Of a stretch of DNA of 58,092 nt, positions 32,361 to 37,096 are shown in pieces; positions within the stretch are counted from its first letter, which is position 1; each line of letters opens with the position of its first letter. Source of the DNA: a virus (lineage: Duplodnaviria; Caudoviricetes); IMG/VR virus record IMGVR_UViG_3300047585_000006, positions 1-58,092 of that record; one strand, given 5' to 3'. The position numbers and the translations under genes are program-made. The notes under the pieces are model-generated. The model searched no databases. It saw only the letters and a list, made by a program, of their open reading frames with translations, and had not been told where the DNA came from.

Positions 32361-32984
32361 TTAATTTCTCTTTTCTGCGAGAGCCTTAGCCCTCGTCAAG
32401 ATTTCTGTAATTCTCATGTCCACAATCAGAGATGGAATCTGGTGCCCATAAGCCCTAGTCAATGCCATTTCTAACCAAGCCCTTAACGAAAACTTTGACT
32501 TGCTAGCTTGACATGACAACTGCGAACTTTCAGGATGTGAACCGCAGCACGGGACTAGGTTTCCGGGTTGATGACCGAGCGATGAATCGATTCGGTCTAG
32601 CCCCCAGACTTTACCTTCTTCGGGAACTCTCCCACAATAAGTACATGGTCGAGCATTTCCATTCTCGTCGAGGTAGTAATGAATCGCCTCAGTCGGGTTT
32701 GAAAATCCAAAATTTCGTCCTGCTACTTTGTCTGTCCACCGCATTCCAAGATATCGTTTCCGAATAATCTTGTAATAACCGTTAGACATACTTTTGGCAC
32801 GGTTTGTAAACTCTTGCCCTGCTCTCGTGTAACTCTTGAGCGTTCCATCTTTTCTCCACTCAGCAGCCCAGTCATCTACCGCTCCGATTGAGAGATTCAA
32901 TCGTTGAGAGATTTCTTGGGGTCCTCGCTGTTGGAGCAATAATTCAAGCGTCTTTCGACGCACGTCTTCAGAATGTGCTTTCAT
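32361..32984 (-). CDS. HTH-fused HNH-type endonuclease
   Basis: N-terminal HTH-like (QEISQRLNLSIGAVDDW); CTYC, GLDRIDS..GH..GNLVPCC. Confidence 0.85.
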   Translation of the reverse strand: MKAHSEDVRRKTLELLLQQRGPQEISQRLNLSIGAVDDWAAEWRKDGTLKSYTRAGQEFTNRAKSMSNGYYKIIRKRYLGMRWTDKVAGRNFGFSNPTEAIHYYLDENGNARPCTYCGRVPEEGKVWGLDRIDSSLGHQPGNLVPCCGSHPESSQLSCQASKSKFSLRAWLEMALTRAYGHQIPSLIVDMRITEILTRAKALAEKRN

Positions 32985-32991
32985 CTTCTCT

Positions 32992-33044
32992 CCTTAATAG
33001 AGAATATGAAAACGGAGGGTGATTAAGGCACCCTCCATCTTCAT
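32992..33044 (-). promoter_or_regulatory. hairpin with loop complementary to the RBS region (putative pseudoknot)
   Basis: ATGAAGATGGAGGGTG-CCTTAAT-CACCCTCCGTTTTCAT...ATTAAGG-AG. Confidence 0.75.
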
Positions 33045-33052
33045 GACACAAC

Positions 33053-35912
33053 CTAGCTAATAGCTGCAATTTGTTACTCGCCTTGCGGCGGGATAAGACA
33101 TTTCTGCTTACCTCTCATAGTTTATCATTTCCTATGAGATCAGACTATCGCATCACACTTTCGTGTGTTCTCTCGCTTAGTCGTTCAGGCTGCCTTGCGG
33201 CTTGCCCCTTGTTGGCATTTCAGCGTCCAAGTCAATCAGAGAGAATTTATACCGCCCCATTGTATTAAGGCGGCGTCAATCTGTCGCATACGGATGGTGG
33301 TATCAGGACCAAGAGAGGTCGTGAAATGCACCCGATACGATGTCCCACAAATTCAGATCAACAACCCGGACAGACGATTATCCGGGGATCAGCCCTTCAG
33401 GATCAGCAACAGTCGGTTCAGCATTCTGCGGGTGTTACCTAGACTGTTAGTAAGGGTTAGTCATTTCTGCTAACCTCTCATACTTACTTTTCGTATGAGA
33501 TCGGACTATTGCATCGCCTTACGGCGTCTTCTCGCTTAGTCTCTCAGCGTACCTTTCGGCTTCGCCCTCGTTGGCATTTCAGCGTTCGAGTCAATCAGAG
33601 AAGATTTTACATCGTCCAGTTTGTTAAACGATGTTGCACTTGATGTTTCGCCAATCGCCGTCACCGTAGGTGGTGTCGTTCTGGGCACCCAGATTGATTG
33701 AGAAGATTCCGTCCTTACCGAAAATGTAAGTGCGGAGTGCCGTCAGACCAGTGACGCCCTTGTAGTTCGAGGTCTTCGTTACAAGGTTCGTCTGGAAGAA
33801 ATGAACTCCGGTTGAAGGCAGTTCAATCACTTCCTCAAGGTCAACGCTGACCAGTTCGTCCATCTTGGCTTGGCCCACCGGAGTGTGCTTCAAGATGTCG
33901 ATTGGAGAGTCGTTGCTGTTATCAGCAAGCACGTCACCCAGAGCGAACGGGTGTATGTAATTGTGTTTGGGTTAAATCGGAAGATTTCCGAACCCTACAT
34001 CACTGTAGGTACGCTCTCATTGTCACCAATGAGTTCAGACTCTATCTTGACTTCTTGCGAAGTCTCTTGCGTATTAGTCGTTAGAGATGACCCACGTTTG
34101 TTCAGTGTTTGCATTTTCCCCAGCAATTCTTTTCGTTTCGCTGCGAGAGTTTCGTCAAAACCGTTGTTGTGCGGAAGCCTGATATACTGAAGGGCTATAT
34201 TCGCCTGCTCTTGTTTGATTACCAGATACGGTAGAATCCCCAAGAGCAACTGCTCACTGTTGGTTCGTCCTTTTGGACGCCAGCCATAAGCAATCTTGTG
34301 TTTCAGATTTGCACGACGGTGATGATAGTATTGTCCACCAAAGTGCTGTACGAGCCACTCCATCAAATCGAGATTCGTATTTGTGACTTCGATACGAATC
34401 GCAGTTGAATCATAAGGACTGCCGTTACTCGACAACCCCTTATGGTGGTAGATACTGAAAGTGCCTTCACCATCAAACATTCCGGCCAGATACGACCAAT
34501 ACACCTTGTCAGGTGTTTTCATAGGTTCTTTCCTCGGTATTTTCTGCTTCGATTCTAATCTAACAGATGTTCACCGATATAGCAAGATTTTTTAACGTTG
34601 GAGCCATACTCTACGCATGTGCTGCGTAGGCTTTGGTGTTAACCCCAACGAATGCTTTGGATGCTTCGTCAAACGGACGGATCGAGCGACCTGCCATCGA
34701 CTGGACAGAGTTACGAATCTGGCTCAGAGACAGTGCAGTGAAGCTGGCCGTGGTCGAAGCAGCAAGCTGCACGAGCACGGAAGCGTCAATGCTGGACGCA
34801 CCGTCGGCGGTTGCACGCACAAGTGCGGACAGGGACTCGCCCAGACGGTAAGACATTTCCTTCGCAACGTTCTCGACGGTGTTGTCAATCGTGGTAGCGA
34901 GAGACAGAGACGAGAAGTTCGCGTAATCTGCGTACTCACCAATGGTCGCGGTGGTAGTCAGAACGCTGATGGACAGAGACGATCCCACAGTCCCTTCCGT
35001 AGTCGGGTTCGTGTTCTGGGCCAGAGGGACGTACATAAACCAATTGTGTTTTGGGTTTAAGGCAGAAAGCCCCCTAGTTCACACTAGGGTCGCTCTACAT
35101 ATCACTATGCAGTTCAGACTCTATCTTTACGACACTGGCGTGTCGATGTTTGACGTATTAGTCGTTGGGGATTCCACATCTTCATCGTACTGGTGGAGAC
35201 TTTTCATTTTCTCCCACAGTTGATAACGTCGTTCAGGATTTTCAACACCTGTCATACGAACGTATTCAAGAGCCGTCACTGCCTGCTCTTGTTTAATTAA
35301 CAGGTATGGTAGGATTCCAAGAAGAAAGGCTTCTACCTTCTTGTGACCCCCTAGGCAAGACCATTTGAAGCATTGTCTTTTCCCTAGTTTTCCGAGAGAG
35401 ACTTCATAGAAATCTCCACCGAAATACCGAACCATCCATCGCATCAACCGCTGAGACGTATTGATTACTGAAATCTTAAGATTGTAATTGTAGTAAGGCG
35501 TGCCTATTTTAGTTTCAGCACAAACCCTACTGATACAAATACATCCTTCGCAATCAACCGCCATCGCTGCCATAGCGAGTTTGGTTTTATCCTGTGTCAT
35601 TATCATGATGTGGTCTTTCCTCCGTCTTGTCTACATTATAGATATTAACGGATATAGTCAAATTTATTTTTAAGTACGGGACTATCATGTAATCTCGTAC
35701 TGGTTACCAGACTTCATGGGGAGGTCGAGGCGTTCCGAACAACGTACGAACGGAGTGTTAGCCTTCAAATTCTCCCTGAATCGCTTATCGTAGTACTTCC
35801 ACCACGATGATTCTTCTGCGGAAATCGAACTTCTCCCAACGTCTGTTTACGGCAAAGTAACCGTGGATTGGGGGAGGTTGGACAACTGATTGCCCGCAGG
35901 CGAAAATGACAT
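33053..35912 (-). CDS. major capsid protein (N4-gp56-like), 7 exons: 35912-35860, 35799-35692, 35040-34642, 33957-33627, 33428-33380, 33345-33268, 33066-33053; 343 aa
   Basis: Follows the scaffold gene; exons total 1032 nt and join in frame: MSFSPAGNQLSNLPQSTV/KYYDKRFRENLK...QYEM/FMYVPL...FVGV/IHPF...CNIV/QNAEP...IPGW/TSYRVHF...DAAS/AIS*. Confidence 0.9.
33067..33267 (-). mobile_element. group I intron 6, no ORF, 201 nt
   Basis: P1 GCCGCCU/GGGCGGU; P3 UUCUCUC/GAGAGAA; P7 GACUA/UAGUC; ends AAUUG. Confidence 0.92.
33346..33379 (-). other. 34-nt core-less mini-intron (intron 5)
   Basis: P1 CCCGGAU/GUCCGGG; P10 GUCU/GGAC; terminal G; removal restores T|GG Trp and the frame. Confidence 0.8.
33429..33626 (-). 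mobile_element. group I intron 4, no ORF, 198 nt
   Basis: P1 ACAUCGUU/GACGAUGU; P10 CUG/CAG; P3 UCUUCUC/GAGAAGA; P7 GACUA/UAGUC; terminal G. Confidence 0.92.
33958..34641 (-). mobile_element. group I intron 3 with LAGLIDADG ORF, 684 nt, ends in A
   Basis: P1 CGUUGGGGU/GCUCCAACG; P10 GUAUG/CAUAC; P3 UCUUGC/GCAAGA; P7 GACU/AGUC. Confidence 0.9.
33995..34522 (-). CDS. intron-encoded LAGLIDADG endonuclease
   Basis: YLAGMFDGEGTF; ILPYLVIKQEQA. Confidence 0.95.
   Translation of the reverse strand: MKTPDKVYWSYLAGMFDGEGTFSIYHHKGLSSNGSPYDSTAIRIEVTNTNLDLMEWLVQHFGGQYYHHRRANLKHKIAYGWRPKGRTNSEQLLLGILPYLVIKQEQANIALQYIRLPHNNGFDETLAAKRKELLGKMQTLNKRGSSLTTNTQETSQEVKIESELIGDNESVPTVM
35041..35691 (-). mobile_element. 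group I intron 2 with LAGLIDADG ORF, 651 nt
   Basis: P1 GUACGAGAU/GUCCCGUAC (one mismatch); P10 UACAUGA/UUAUGUA; P3 UUUGAC/GUCAAA; P7 GACU/AGUC; ends ACAAUUG. Confidence 0.9.
35127..35606 (-). CDS. intron-encoded LAGLIDADG endonuclease
   Basis: MAAMAVDCEGCI (divergent motif); ILPYLLIKQEQA shared with the intron 3 ORF. Confidence 0.88.
   Translation of the reverse strand: MIMTQDKTKLAMAAMAVDCEGCICISRVCAETKIGTPYYNYNLKISVINTSQRLMRWMVRYFGGDFYEVSLGKLGKRQCFKWSCLGGHKKVEAFLLGILPYLLIKQEQAVTALEYVRMTGVENPERRYQLWEKMKSLHQYDEDVESPTTNTSNIDTPVS
35800..35859 (-). other. 60-nt core-less mini-intron (intron 1)
   Basis: P1 ACGGU/GCCGU; P10 UACUUU/GAAGUA; terminal G; contains an in-frame TAA. Confidence 0.75.
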
Positions 35913-35935
35913 TGTATTAACCTTTCAAATCATGA

Positions 35936-37096
35936 CTATCGACGGATGCCCATCTCCGCACGTTTGTGTGCGGCCTCAGACTCTAGTCGGTTGACGAGAG
36001 CAACGAATTTCGGGTCTTTCAATTTGGCCCGATAAACGTCAGAGGGGAGCTTGTCGATGTCAGCAAGAGTCACAGAATGGCCATCGACCGGAACGTTAGG
36101 TCCGGCGGCTGATGCGACTGAGGCATTCAGACCAGATGGTACGTGACTATGTCGCTTTACTTGCGGCGGCTCTACCGTGCCCAATCCGGGGGCGGCGGCT
36201 GCTGGAGTCTGCGATTTCGACTCCGGTTCCACGGTAACGACTGGCAGTTCCACTACAGGAACTTTAGGCGTTACAGATGCCTGTTGCACTACAGGGATGA
36301 CCTCAAGCAATCCAGCTTGGGCCAACGTGTCAAACGCGGTCTTGAAATTTGCAATGGTGGGAGCGTAATTACGCTTCGCCATCCACCGAGTTACTGCATC
36401 TCGGTTCGCCGGAGAGTCGTAGTACCCATCGGCTAGATTTACAAACTCAACATAATTCTCAACGGCACGTTGCTGGGCGATGAACTTACTCGTATCGTTC
36501 AGCGTACGGGCCAGAACTTCTGGCTTCACTCCGAAGGCCGACTCAACAATCAAGTCGCGGGCTTCAGCAGCAGTCTCGGGATTAGTCAACTTCTGAGACA
36601 GTGCGAAGCGTTCTTCGGATGTTAGATCGCGGGATTTGAACTCCGCGATGTTCTGGAACTTCTCGGCATCGTCCTTCGGTTCGTCGGAACCAAACGCCTT
36701 CTCGCGGGACATCTTCCGCATCTGGCGAACGGCCTGTTCCTGATTCTTAATCAGCTTTTCGAGCTTCTCAGCTTCCGTGCGATAGACAATGACTTGCTTG
36801 CCGCCCATAGGACGACCGTCTTCATCGCAAAGCTGGTACTCGTAACGCTGCTCCGGCAATTCTGCGGGAGCCGCTGGGGGTGTCGGCGGAACGACTGCGG
36901 CCACTGGAGCATTCTTGGCAACGAGTCCTGTGGGATCGTTCTCAAGTGCGGGTGCGTCGGGATCGGTCCCGGCGAGAACTGCGGCAATCTTGTCTTCGAC
37001 CAACTTCAATTCTGCGGCGATGCGGGCCTTCTCTGCGGCCACGGCTTCGTCATTCAGACCTTTGGCAGTCTGTGGTACTGCGGTAGTGGTGCTCAT
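35936..37096 (-). CDS. putative capsid scaffolding protein
   Basis: Between portal and MCP; helical, Pro/Ala linker, charged C-terminal helix. Confidence 0.7.
   Translation of the reverse strand: MSTTTAVPQTAKGLNDEAVAAEKARIAAELKLVEDKIAAVLAGTDPDAPALENDPTGLVAKNAPVAAVVPPTPPAAPAELPEQRYEYQLCDEDGRPMGGKQVIVYRTEAEKLEKLIKNQEQAVRQMRKMSREKAFGSDEPKDDAEKFQNIAEFKSRDLTSEERFALSQKLTNPETAAEARDLIVESAFGVKPEVLARTLNDTSKFIAQQRAVENYVEFVNLADGYYDSPANRDAVTRWMAKRNYAPTIANFKTAFDTLAQAGLLEVIPVVQQASVTPKVPVVELPVVTVEPESKSQTPAAAAPGLGTVEPPQVKRHSHVPSGLNASVASAAGPNVPVDGHSVTLADIDKLPSDVYRAKLKDPKFVALVNRLESEAAHKRAEMGIRR

Follow-up and report, generated by a model that had tools for sequence, protein, structure and literature searches.

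The capsid gene and its introns

The window, by which we mean the whole 58,092-nt stretch of DNA that was analysed, is a partial contig of a soil/peat phage and covers about 60% of its genome. The major capsid gene runs on the minus strand from 35912 to 33053 and, like all features below, is described in that orientation. Introns 2 (35041..35691, minus strand; 651 nt) and 3 (33958..34641, minus strand; 684 nt, with boundaries ambiguous by up to 2 nt) are class B group I introns with Rfam E-values of 1.1e-3 and 2.1e-4, respectively. Intron 3 carries a LAGLIDADG ORF (PF00961, E=1.3e-5) and intron 2 a LAGLIDADG-like ORF for which a Pfam search returned no match. Introns 4 (33429..33626, minus strand; 198 nt) and 6 (33067..33267, minus strand; 201 nt) belong to class A, are 80% identical to each other over about 160 nt and reach E=4.5 (intron 4) and only E=1.7 with the Intron_gpI model (intron 6). 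At the Rfam gathering threshold a tRNA is the sole match in the window, and at E up to 10 Intron_gpI gives weak matches for the four large introns. Comparison of 16 class A introns showed an architecture of P3 to P9.2 with compensatory changes in 27 of 42 predicted pairs, the P7 strands of intron 6 being assigned by motif. Judged by their sequences, the introns considered below as possible helpers are complete group I introns.

The first-pass annotation had proposed a 34-nt mini-intron lying between two complete introns of about 200 nt, 49 and 78 nt away, and this arrangement is what we find. The insert (33346..33379, minus strand) is separated from intron 4 by exon 5 (33380..33428, minus strand; 49 nt), which encodes QNAEPTVADPEGLIPG and the first base of Trp314, and from intron 6 by exon 6 (33268..33345, minus strand; 78 nt), which holds the GG of Trp314, TSYRVHFTTSLGPDTTIRMRQIDAA and the first base of Ser. 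Exon 7 (33053..33066, minus strand; 14 nt) finishes the protein with ..SAIS and a TAG stop, an assignment based on homology to the ...IDAASAIS* end of the capsid protein of the Tunturiibacter phage Tunturi_3. A second mini-insert of the same gene (35800..35859, minus strand; 60 nt) lies between Val18 and Lys19. It has a 5-bp P1, a 6-bp P10, a terminal G and an in-frame TAA, and intron 2 starts 108 nt downstream of it. The remaining exons of the gene are all intact. Outside the gene, the ORF at 32364-32987 shows a weak HTH only, under the Pfam curated cut-offs (HTH_23, 20.8 bits vs 24.6).

A tblastn search with exon 4 matched Tunturi_3 only, and a blastn search of cultured and deposited phages with intron 6 found a single match, a metagenomic record, so that no cultured phage with a mini-insert is to hand. 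The word “intron” occurs 0 times in the main text of the Tunturi paper (PMC11924767). Contigs of sequencing run X1 contain 1.00 of 304 sampled words from 33050-35950, and X1 may be the source sample.

The 34-nt insert and its homologues in the Trp314 codon

In mRNA sense the insert reads AAUCGUCUGUCCGGGUUGUUGAUCUGAAUUUGUG (33379-33346); exon 5 ends in ...CCCGGAU at 33380 and exon 6 starts with GGACA at 33345. With the insert retained the frame reads GGA UAA, the immediate stop that had been predicted for the unprocessed message. Removal of exactly 34 nt joins U|GG into Trp followed by 25 sense codons and gives GLIPGWTSYRVHF, the sequence of the Tunturi_3 capsid protein, whose gene has no introns. 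The major head protein of that phage reads ...PEGLIPGWTSYRVHFTTSLGPDTTIR..IDAASAIS, in agreement with the insert-free frame of the window. Only one placement of the 34-nt gap gives this best protein match and restores GLIPGWTSY. Comparison with homologous capsid proteins had been suggested as a check on the insert, and they run through GLIPGWTSY instead of ending at IPG.

The last 7 nt of exon 5, CCCGGAU (33380..33386, minus strand), are complementary to an internal guide sequence, GUCCGGG (33365..33371, minus strand), whose first G faces the U at the splice site, giving a 7-bp P1 that ends in a U.G pair. Directly 5' of the guide lies the intron strand of P10, GUCU (33372..33375, minus strand), which pairs with the first 4 nt of exon 6, GGAC (33342..33345, minus strand). 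P10 in the window is only 4 bp long, the fifth pair being a C.A mismatch. The last base of the insert is a G (33346, minus strand), as had been claimed, and occupies the omega-G position. A P1 of at least 7 bp with U.G together with an adjoining P10 of at least 4 bp was obtained in 2 of 2000 mononucleotide shuffles of the insert with its final G fixed. The minimum-energy fold includes the P1 hairpin; its energy is unremarkable when compared with shuffled sequences (z-scores of -0.7, -1.0 and 0.0), and the 34 nt folded alone give -3.3 kcal/mol with z = 0.0. Support for the structure of the insert is comparative, not thermodynamic.

After P1 only 19 nt of the insert remain. Across 33346-33379 the Rfam model Intron_gpI gave no match with the E-value limit raised to 10, and a motif search and folds of the 34 nt found no P7 motif, G-binding site or P7-like helix, in line with the earlier statement that the insert is too short for a ribozyme core. 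By the usual description of a group I intron, P1, P10 and the terminal G are present and the catalytic core P3-P9 with its G-binding site is absent.

Fifteen distinct inserts occupy the same T|GG in related contigs. They measure 34, 34, 36, 39, 45, 51, 62, 65, 71, 83, 94 (three variants), 97 and 98 nt and thus grade in size from 98 down to 34 nt. A full-length intron at the same capsid site in relatives had been named as something to look for, and one contig (L222) has it: there the T|GG is occupied by a full-size class A intron that carries a 214-aa ORF and has the same P1 and P10 bases. A Pfam search with this ORF returned no match. Of the 65 related loci that lack the insert and match the search pattern, 62 have an uninterrupted PGW-T, and one of the three exceptions, L005, carries a 39-nt insert there. 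On the evidence of these sequences the 34-nt insert is not a private error.

We aligned 14 of the inserts, and all 14 have a P1 of 7 bp with U.G at its end, a P10 directly beside it and G as the last base. Across this alignment 99% of the cells in P1 and 94% of those in P10 are paired, figures to be read with the fact that 11 of the 14 sequences were retrieved by a pattern fixing most P1/P10 bases and leaving free a Y/R pair and the flanks. Four pairs vary on both sides, two in P1 and two in P10. In P1 the exon and guide triplets occur as CCC with GGG in 6 sequences and as CCU with AGG in 8, with 0 mismatched; in L005 an A-U pair is turned to U-A. The fifth P10 pair is A-U in 8 sequences, C-G in 1, G-C in 1 and unpaired in 4, and P10 is 6 bp long in 9 of 13 insert types. 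The observed covariation score was attained in 0 of 500 shuffles, and when the partner strand was slid by one column pairing fell to 43-55%. The middle portions of the inserts are not conserved. The first-pass annotation had held that the 7-bp P1 with its U.G and the P10 fix the register of the insert and had asked for covariation of both helices in homologous inserts; the compensatory changes bear it out.

Over codons 323-327, which follow the insert, we measured pS of 0.58 and pN of 0.018 (13 types, 78 pairs), a pN/pS of about 0.03, and a direct comparison of one relative (L218) with the window showed changes at 13 of 14 synonymous and 2 of 37 non-synonymous sites. Exon 6 is under strong purifying selection, and we infer from its codons that the 34 nt are removed from the message.

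Mini-inserts, downstream introns and RNA

Similar inserts are found along the capsid gene. We catalogued 27 distinct mini-inserts of 32-98 nt at eight sites, and three more were found later. In all 27, P1 spans 5-9 bp and includes the U.G pair, P10 adjoins it with 4-8 bp and the last base is G, the U/G-compatible placement having been kept where boundaries were ambiguous; shuffled versions had both helices in at most 0.1% of trials. A catalytic core was found in none of the catalogued mini-inserts, and because their retained middle parts differ entirely, there is no common catalytic element among them.

Each mini-insert with enough downstream DNA is followed by a full-size group I intron 41-215 nt downstream. 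At the Trp314 site a class A core motif lies 133-170 nt downstream in 13 of 13 insert types, and it is present in 31 of 33 loci, the other two being cut 77 nt after the insert. L005 has the motif as well. The downstream intron starts 41, 53 or 78 nt from the insert, at three different capsid sites. For mini-inserts elsewhere in the gene a full-size intron follows at 45-215 nt in 21 of 21 loci and precedes in only 4, and four further loci agree with the downstream rule. Among 62 insert-free loci such a motif occurs within 170 nt in 5 and within 425 nt in 15. Many of the loci counted are copies of the same contig in two collections, and the association could stem partly from shared descent within an intron-rich clade. 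We found no specific pairing between a mini-insert and its putative helper. A 7-bp match between the tail of the window's insert and the 3' end of intron 6 was rejected, as it is absent (by eye) in L046, L076 and L218.

RNA data speak to the activity of the phage. In one RNA contig 35041 is linked directly to 35691 (0 mismatches); this is the junction of a circle comprising all of intron 2. The presence of this excised circle in an RNA library implies that the phage is transcribed and that its ribozymes work in nature. At 33346-33379 there was no cover by RNA reads or contigs, and 33341-33437 is uncovered in four RNA runs. Contigs from runs X19-X21 represent a relative about 95% alike that is without all inserts, and may be spliced RNA or an intron-free phage; at 26 listed differences compared with 104 loci, their best agreement was 19 of 26, with an intron-free locus (L004), so that none of these loci is their source DNA.

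Proposed excision of a core-less insert

A group I intron is by definition one that catalyses its own removal. We favour, at a probability of roughly 55%, the reading that the 34-nt insert is a group I intron without a core, for whose splicing a neighbour supplies the ribozyme core. It would be the remnant of a group I intron that formerly occupied the Trp314 codon and from which internal deletions took out the entire catalytic core (P3-P9), leaving the substrate features: the P1 hairpin with its U.G 5' splice site, the P10 guide bases and the terminal G. Excision from the pre-mRNA would follow the usual two transesterifications, with the active site lent by a complete group I intron, most likely intron 6 on the same transcript or, alternatively, by intron RNA already excised and pooled in the infected cell. 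On this view the mini-intron would be a non-autonomous passenger of autonomous introns, and one may speculate that it persists by breaking the target site of the homing endonuclease of a full-size intron. This reading builds on features with direct support, namely the anatomy of the insert, the covariation of its helices, the existence of a full-size homologue at this position and the selection acting on codons downstream. We regard it as an even proposition that the mini-inserts form a class of non-autonomous group I introns (P1, P10 and terminal G within 32-98 nt), each spliced by a complete intron 41-215 nt downstream on the same pre-mRNA, at eight or more sites in one phage capsid gene family. 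We know of no natural example in which one group I intron splices another that has no core, and a literature search returned no description of core-less phage group I introns or of natural helper-dependent group I splicing.

For the window's copy the main rival is ribosome hopping as in T4 gene 60, which we hold to be improbable. The ribosome would leave the message at GGA (Gly313), with UAA occupying the A site and the P1 hairpin as the take-off stem-loop; its peptidyl-tRNA-Gly would land on GGG (33346-33344), and decoding would resume at ACA (Thr315). Several details fit: UAA directly follows GGA, the take-off codon is part of a hairpin's 5' arm, the gap is otherwise A/U-rich and a Gly triplet matched by wobble lies immediately before an in-frame codon. 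Gene-60 homologues are described as having GGG/GGA wobble pairs of take-off and landing codons (bioRxiv 10.1101/2022.08.31.505936). The product of such a hop would however be without Trp314, which the uninterrupted PGW-T of 62 of 65 related loci preserves, and neither a GAG/GGA-type mini-SD 5-7 nt before the landing triplet nor a nascent-peptide signal was evident by eye. A matched landing triplet of any kind occurs in only 5 of the 27 mini-inserts and a stop directly after the Gly codon in only 2 of the 14 Trp314 types (the window and L005); the other 12 have a sense codon there, and 17-62 nt of insert would be translated first in these types. Hopping has no need of the U.G pair and P10, yet both are kept by compensatory changes. 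The same signature bears on excision by proteins or by another RNA, in which the P1/P10 junction would be recognised by an endonuclease and a ligase from host or phage, or else by some other, unknown ribozyme. U.G, terminal G and P10 together mark specific group I chemistry, and RtcB (PF01139), RNA ligase (PF09414) and splicing endonuclease (PF01974) were not found in the window, which holds about 60% of the genome. Nothing speaks for this possibility directly, though its factors could lie in the rest of the genome; we judge it unlikely, on a par with hopping.

A 34-nt intron might also splice by itself with the help of folded flanking exons, like the fungal intron PaSSU. Degenerate group I introns of 56-81 nt with P1, P7 and P10 have been reported, with splicing in vitro that needed about 300 nt of exon (PMC3160393). 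Against an autonomous ribozyme stand the 19 nt left after P1, with neither a P7-like helix nor a G-binding site, and the lack of any catalytic element common to the mini-inserts; the constant presence of a complete intron downstream would also be left unexplained. We consider self-splicing of the insert quite unlikely, more so than either hopping or excision by other factors. At the far end is the reading, already disfavoured and in our estimate very unlikely, that the capsid gene was broken by a decayed intron or an assembly error and gives no full protein. The contig does come from a single sample, only X1 having more than 0.29 of the sampled words, and with the insert site devoid of RNA cover excision was not observed. 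An error or relic is however difficult to reconcile with two independent 34-nt inserts, 13 inserts of other lengths in the Trp314 codon and mini-inserts at six or more further positions, in many samples, with helices kept by compensatory change and downstream codons under strong purifying selection, or with intact other exons and one intron of the gene seen as processed RNA.

Self-splicing group I introns are well known from phage genes, with several in one structural gene in Staphylococcus phage Twort. The insert resembles them in the U.G 5' splice site within P1, in P10 and the terminal G, in the early in-frame stop after the 5' splice site, and in the homing-endonuclease ORFs of sister introns and the full-size homologue at the same site. 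It differs in having no P3-P9 core and no G-binding site and is about one sixth as long as the adjacent complete introns (195-230 nt). Reduction of another ribozyme class is known from Euglena plastids, where group III and mini group II introns are cut down to splice-site elements and are thought to depend on trans factors; they offer a conceptual analogue, with group II/spliceosome-type chemistry and in organelles.

A group I precedent is provided by the degenerate fungal SSU rDNA introns of 56-81 nt, among them the 67-nt PaSSU of Phialophora, in which P1, P7 and P10 are reported and the middle of the intron pairs with the 3' exon (Harris and Rogers 2011, PMC3160393). These too appear as group I deletion derivatives with P1 and P10 that have to be removed from an essential RNA. 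As far as described there, however, they have P7 and the 3'-exon pairing, are reported to self-splice, reside in eukaryotic rRNA and form one monophyletic group mostly at a single rDNA site with one member elsewhere, and PaSSU ends in U. The capsid mini-inserts are unlike them in going down to 32-34 nt without P7, in occupying eight sites of a phage protein gene and in always having a complete intron downstream; the 34-nt insert shares P1 and P10 with the PaSSU type, with P7 absent and the middles unconserved. The T4 gene 60 coding gap of 50 nt (PMC5009743) is similar as a short untranslatable insert in an essential phage gene with homing-endonuclease traffic nearby, and the window copy has, like it, a Gly codon followed by a stop within a hairpin. 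Landing in gene 60 restores the protein exactly, whereas hopping in the capsid gene would delete an invariant Trp, and the mini-insert family mostly lacks matched codons (5/27) and keeps splice-site helices.

Split and trans-acting ribozymes, such as the Azoarcus and Candida systems (PMC3895272, PMC2588497) and a trans-spliced intron of Isoetes (PMC2731911), indicate that the P1 substrate and terminal G on which a group I core acts may belong to another chain. Such systems are engineered or consist of two halves of one intron rejoined by pairing; in the capsid gene, a second intron lacking a core would be served by one that is complete and self-sufficient. Tandem group I introns with exon skipping suggest that neighbours on one transcript can use each other's splice sites, although both partners have a full core, unlike the 34-nt insert (PMC10136302). 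If our reading is correct, a widespread family under selection that has lost its catalyst and retains its substrate helices would show that group I ribozymes act on their neighbours in nature. It would be a natural multiple-substrate or trans reaction, of a kind so far known mainly from engineered systems; the split intron of T4 td is a further split group I case. The mini-inserts would then be parasites of a selfish element, an RNA-splicing counterpart of MITEs and SINEs, and may persist by destroying homing-endonuclease target sites at minimal cost. For group I introns they would offer a counterpart to the view, proposed for the origin of spliceosomal and group III introns, that self-splicing introns passed catalysis on to shared machinery, and they would connect with the T4 gene 60 gap, whose origin is unexplained. 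They would also account for the frameshifted capsid genes that annotation pipelines label as broken in phage metagenomes. With substrate and proposed helper on one transcript of about 600 nt, the system is compact and easily tested.

The 34-nt insert of the capsid gene

The window, a linear IMG/VR record of 58,092 bases with an estimated completeness of about 60%, was mapped by aligning onto it the head protein of Tunturiibacter phage Tunturi_3, a podovirus infecting an Arctic soil acidobacterium. This is the sole deposited phage with a related protein (79% identity across the 110 residues of exon 4), and its 343 residues are encoded without interruption. The capsid gene of the window lies on the minus strand, starts with an ATG at 35912 and comprises exon 1 (35912-35860), a 60-nt insert (35859-35800), exon 2 (35799-35692), intron 2 (651 nt, 35691-35041), exon 3, intron 3 (684 nt, about 34641-33958), exon 4, intron 4 (198 nt, 33626-33429), exon 5 (49 nt, 33428-33380), the 34-nt insert (33379-33346), exon 6 (78 nt, 33345-33268), intron 6 (201 nt, 33267-33067) and exon 7 (33066-33053), which encodes ..SAIS and a TAG codon. 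Contigs of the sequencing run X1, which may be the source sample, contain 304 of 304 sampled words of the gene.

The first-pass annotation had read the insert as a mini-intron with P1 and P10 helices, and every one of its sequence statements on 33346-33379 proved correct. The insert is preceded by ...CCC GGA U and begins with AA, so that left in place it creates a stop codon at once (GGA UAA). Its exact removal joins U to GG ACA UCG and restores the Trp of GLIPG-W-TSYRVHF..., the Tunturi_3 sequence, which only one placement of the 34-nt gap yields. The end of exon 5 and a guide within the insert form a 7-bp P1 (CCCGGAU/GUCCGGG) with U.G as the junction pair, GUCU immediately 5' of the guide pairs with GGAC of exon 6 as P10, and the final base is G. 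Both helices were reached by 2 of 2000 shuffles of the insert; its folding energy by itself is unremarkable.

Related inserts at Trp314 and at other capsid sites

A scan of IMG/VR with exon 4 gave 106 related stretches, of which 80 were retained; about half of their capsid genes are uninterrupted, and in the others there are inserts, some about 200 nt long, some of 570-840 nt and some short. Further loci came from a pattern scan of JGI metagenome contigs and IMG/VR. Fifteen different inserts from these collections split the Trp314 codon at the same point, between T and GG, with lengths of 34 (twice), 36 (L046), 39 (L005), 45 (L207), 51 (L221), 62, 65, 71, 83, 94 (three variants), 97 and 98 nt. 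The two of 34 nt, in the window and in L218, differ in sequence. A full-length intron at the same site, which the first-pass annotation had suggested seeking, is present in L222; it is a full-size intron of class A, the type of the neighbouring complete group I introns 4 and 6, has a 214-aa ORF with no match in Pfam, and its P1 and P10 bases are the same as in the short inserts. The set of short inserts resembles a deletion series. The 3' tail of the window insert (..AUCUGAAUUUGUG) is similar to those of the 36-nt and 83-nt inserts, and these lineages are also its closest exon 6 relatives (2 and 5 synonymous differences in 17 codons), which suggests that an internal hairpin was recently lost in the window. 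Inserts of 62-98 nt have in common an internal hairpin (alignment columns about 48-75) whose stem sequence varies while pairing, judged by eye, is apparently kept; it seems dispensable, as the 34-51-nt inserts are without it. Within L222:1-1450 two full-size class A introns flank an exon of a mere 19 nt (GAAGGTTTGATCCCTGGAT), the second being the Trp314-site intron.

Covariation of the two helices had also been proposed as a check, and an alignment of 14 Trp314 inserts revealed compensatory changes in both. Over the named pairs 99% of P1 cells and 94% of P10 cells are paired; 11 of the 14 inserts were retrieved by a pattern fixing most P1/P10 bases, so that the informative positions are the Y/R positions in P1 and the P10 flanks, which it left free, while the window, L005 and L046 are independent of the pattern, the latter two having been found through protein alignment. 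P1 pair 3 is C-G in 6 inserts and U-A in 8 with no mismatch, and P1 pair 6 reads A-U in 13; the exception, L005, has U-A and a GGU Gly codon. P10 pair 5 is A-U in 8, C-G in L218, G-C in L005 and unpaired in 4 including the window. None of 500 shuffles matched the covariation score, and sliding the partner by one column lowered pairing to 43-55%. By this comparative measure both helices are under selection.

Codons 323-327, which lie outside the search pattern, gave a pS of 0.58 against a pN of 0.018 over 13 Trp314 insert types. Between L218 and the window, differences over codons 323-339 affect 13 of the 14 synonymous sites and 2 of the 37 non-synonymous ones; a wider downstream stretch was also compared, part of it constrained by the pattern. 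The selected frame is the one given by exact removal. Judged from this codon conservation, the insert must leave the message, since if it were retained the codons past Gly313 would be untranslated and free to drift.

In all, 27 distinct mini-inserts (32-98 nt) were catalogued, at eight sites in the capsid gene: after residues 18 (54 and 60 nt, the latter at 35859-35800 on the minus strand of the window), 20 (56 nt), 22 (73 nt), 31 (33 nt) and 54 (45-47 nt), near residue 301 (32 nt), after residue 307 (46 nt) and in codon 314 (34-98 nt). Three additional variants of 47-48 nt occur at residue 54. Every one of the 27 ends in G and forms a P1 (5-9 bp) whose last pair is U.G together with a directly adjacent P10 (4-8 bp); where boundaries were ambiguous the U/G-compatible placement was retained, and placement is unique for the sites at residues 22, 54 and 314. 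Both helices arose in at most 0.1% of shuffle trials. The stretch from P1 to the final G is wholly different among the inserts, a P3-P9 core was found in none of the 27, and what they have in common is the group I substrate-recognition elements only. The 60-nt insert of the window separates Val18 from Lys19 and is in frame yet contains TAA; its P1 has 5 bp, its P10 has 6 bp using the entire P1 loop, and it ends in G. Intron 2 begins 108 nt downstream, and the L005 homologue measures 54 nt. Members of 33 nt (residue 31/32; L046, L075, L076) and 32 nt (L017), each with a 7-bp P1, a P10 of 4-5 bp and a terminal G, show that 34 nt is not the lower size limit.

Complete introns downstream and RNA from intron 2

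Class A P7 motifs lie 133-170 nt downstream of the Trp314 insert in 13 of 13 types, and downstream in 31 of 33 loci, the other two contigs stopping 77 nt past the insert; these loci, like those counted below, are non-independent trials, as many are the same contig in two collections and lineages are related. L005 has such motifs as well. Among 62 loci with an uninterrupted Trp314, by comparison, a class A motif occurs within 170 nt in 5 and within 425 nt in 15. The putative helper is a complete intron that could lend its core. Its start lies 41, 53 or 78 nt past the insert, at capsid residue 327, at residue 331 (directly behind each) or within codon 340, and these three distinct positions argue against simple co-inheritance. 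Short inserts elsewhere have a full-size intron 45-215 nt downstream in 21 of 21 loci and upstream in only 4, and in four more loci with a 47-48-nt insert an intron of about 620-640 nt follows the next exon. By our own count of 11 insert-site/helper-site combinations, the helper is downstream in all and upstream only in none. An alignment of 16 helpers showed P3, P4, P5, P6, P8, P9, P9.1 and P9.2, and 27 of the 42 pairs carry compensatory changes. Two invariant strands found by motif search, GACUA and UAGUC, are placed by us as the P7 pseudoknot. On this structural evidence the helpers are genuine, complete group I introns; the general Rfam group I model scores them poorly (E 1.7 for intron 6 and 4.5 for intron 4).

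In the peat metatranscriptome X22 a 317-nt contig (depth 44, no mismatches to the window) connects position 35041 straight to 35691; protein alignment defines these as the two ends of intron 2, its last and its first base respectively. Full-length circles are a known by-product of group I introns, and the junction is that of an intron 2 circle; the loose ends of the contig look like sequencing adapters. The circle shows transcription, correct intron 2 ends and accumulation of excised intron RNA, and thus the phage's ribozymes work in nature. No cover of the capsid exons or the 34-nt insert was found in X22.

Probable removal of the insert and its alternatives

Our results establish an element of group I origin that retains only P1, P10 and a terminal G, is kept by selection and has to be removed; the finding is real and reproducible across many samples. 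It is very probable that the insert is an intron derived from group I and that it is excised exactly, at the RNA level. That removal proceeds by group I chemistry with a borrowed active site is inferred, and we set the probability of the whole statement at roughly 55%. In this scheme the core of a complete intron would receive the P1 hairpin. The simplest candidate is the intron 78 nt downstream, to whose core the hairpin would be tethered from the 5' side like a native P1. GTP would attack after the splice-site U; the G that ends the insert would then occupy the G-site, exon 6 being held by P10, and the exons would be joined. Alternatively, the excised intron RNA that accumulates could act on the insert in trans. 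Group I ribozymes that are engineered or split are described as acting in trans, and tandem group I introns as able to use each other's splice sites (PMC10136302).

For the window copy, ribosome hopping of the T4 gene 60 kind merits consideration: here GGA is followed by UAA, the take-off codon lies within a hairpin, the remainder is A/U-rich and a wobble-matched GGG ends in frame. For the gene 60 gap itself, an origin as a decayed group I intron has been proposed (PMC5009743). Hopping, however, would delete the invariant Trp and leaves the U.G pair and P10 unexplained; a matched landing triplet of any kind is found in only 5 of the 27 mini-inserts, and a sense codon follows the Gly codon in 12 of the 14 Trp314 types counted. 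Degenerate group I introns measuring only 56-81 nt have been described from fungal rDNA, and self-splicing is claimed for one of them, the 67-nt PaSSU intron (PMC3160393), whereas the phage insert has 34 nt and lacks a P7. Protein-based splicing finds no support in the window, and a dead gene or an artefact is at odds with the comparative data. In the literature covered, main texts with few subscription journals among them, no description turned up of phage genes with core-less group I introns, nor of a group I intron that depends in nature on another one. The 32-98-nt group I-type mini-introns would form a previously undescribed population, and there is a considerable probability that they are spliced in a new way.

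Some further features of these loci were observed. Intron 3 (about 33958-34641), a large intron of class B, lies between residues 187 and 188 and has three equivalent protein-based placements, none ending in G (..TTA, ..TAC, ..ACA). The same intron in L031, L046, the L051 family, L077 and others also has non-G ends, and A is likewise the last base of the 650-nt L035-family intron and of the introns that L078 and L081 carry near residue 189; in these introns the base at the 3' end would be unusual, or the splice site displaced. Just past the capsid stop codon and outside intron 6, an ORF of about 208 aa (32361-32993, minus strand) gave weak helix-turn-helix matches in Pfam, both under the curated cut-offs (HTH_23, 20.8 against 24.6 bits); by eye it has a Cys/His-rich motif resembling free-standing HNH homing endonucleases. 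In L051-L056 and L058-L061 class A core motifs lie about 235-267 nt past the Trp314 codon, beyond the end of the capsid gene, and perhaps mark either a ribozyme-like element standing on its own or an intron of the next gene. In L036, L038, L041-L043, L045, L065 and L068 capsid residues of about 290-335 find a weak second match about 2.2-2.6 kb downstream of the capsid gene, being either a partial duplicate or a related domain within another gene.
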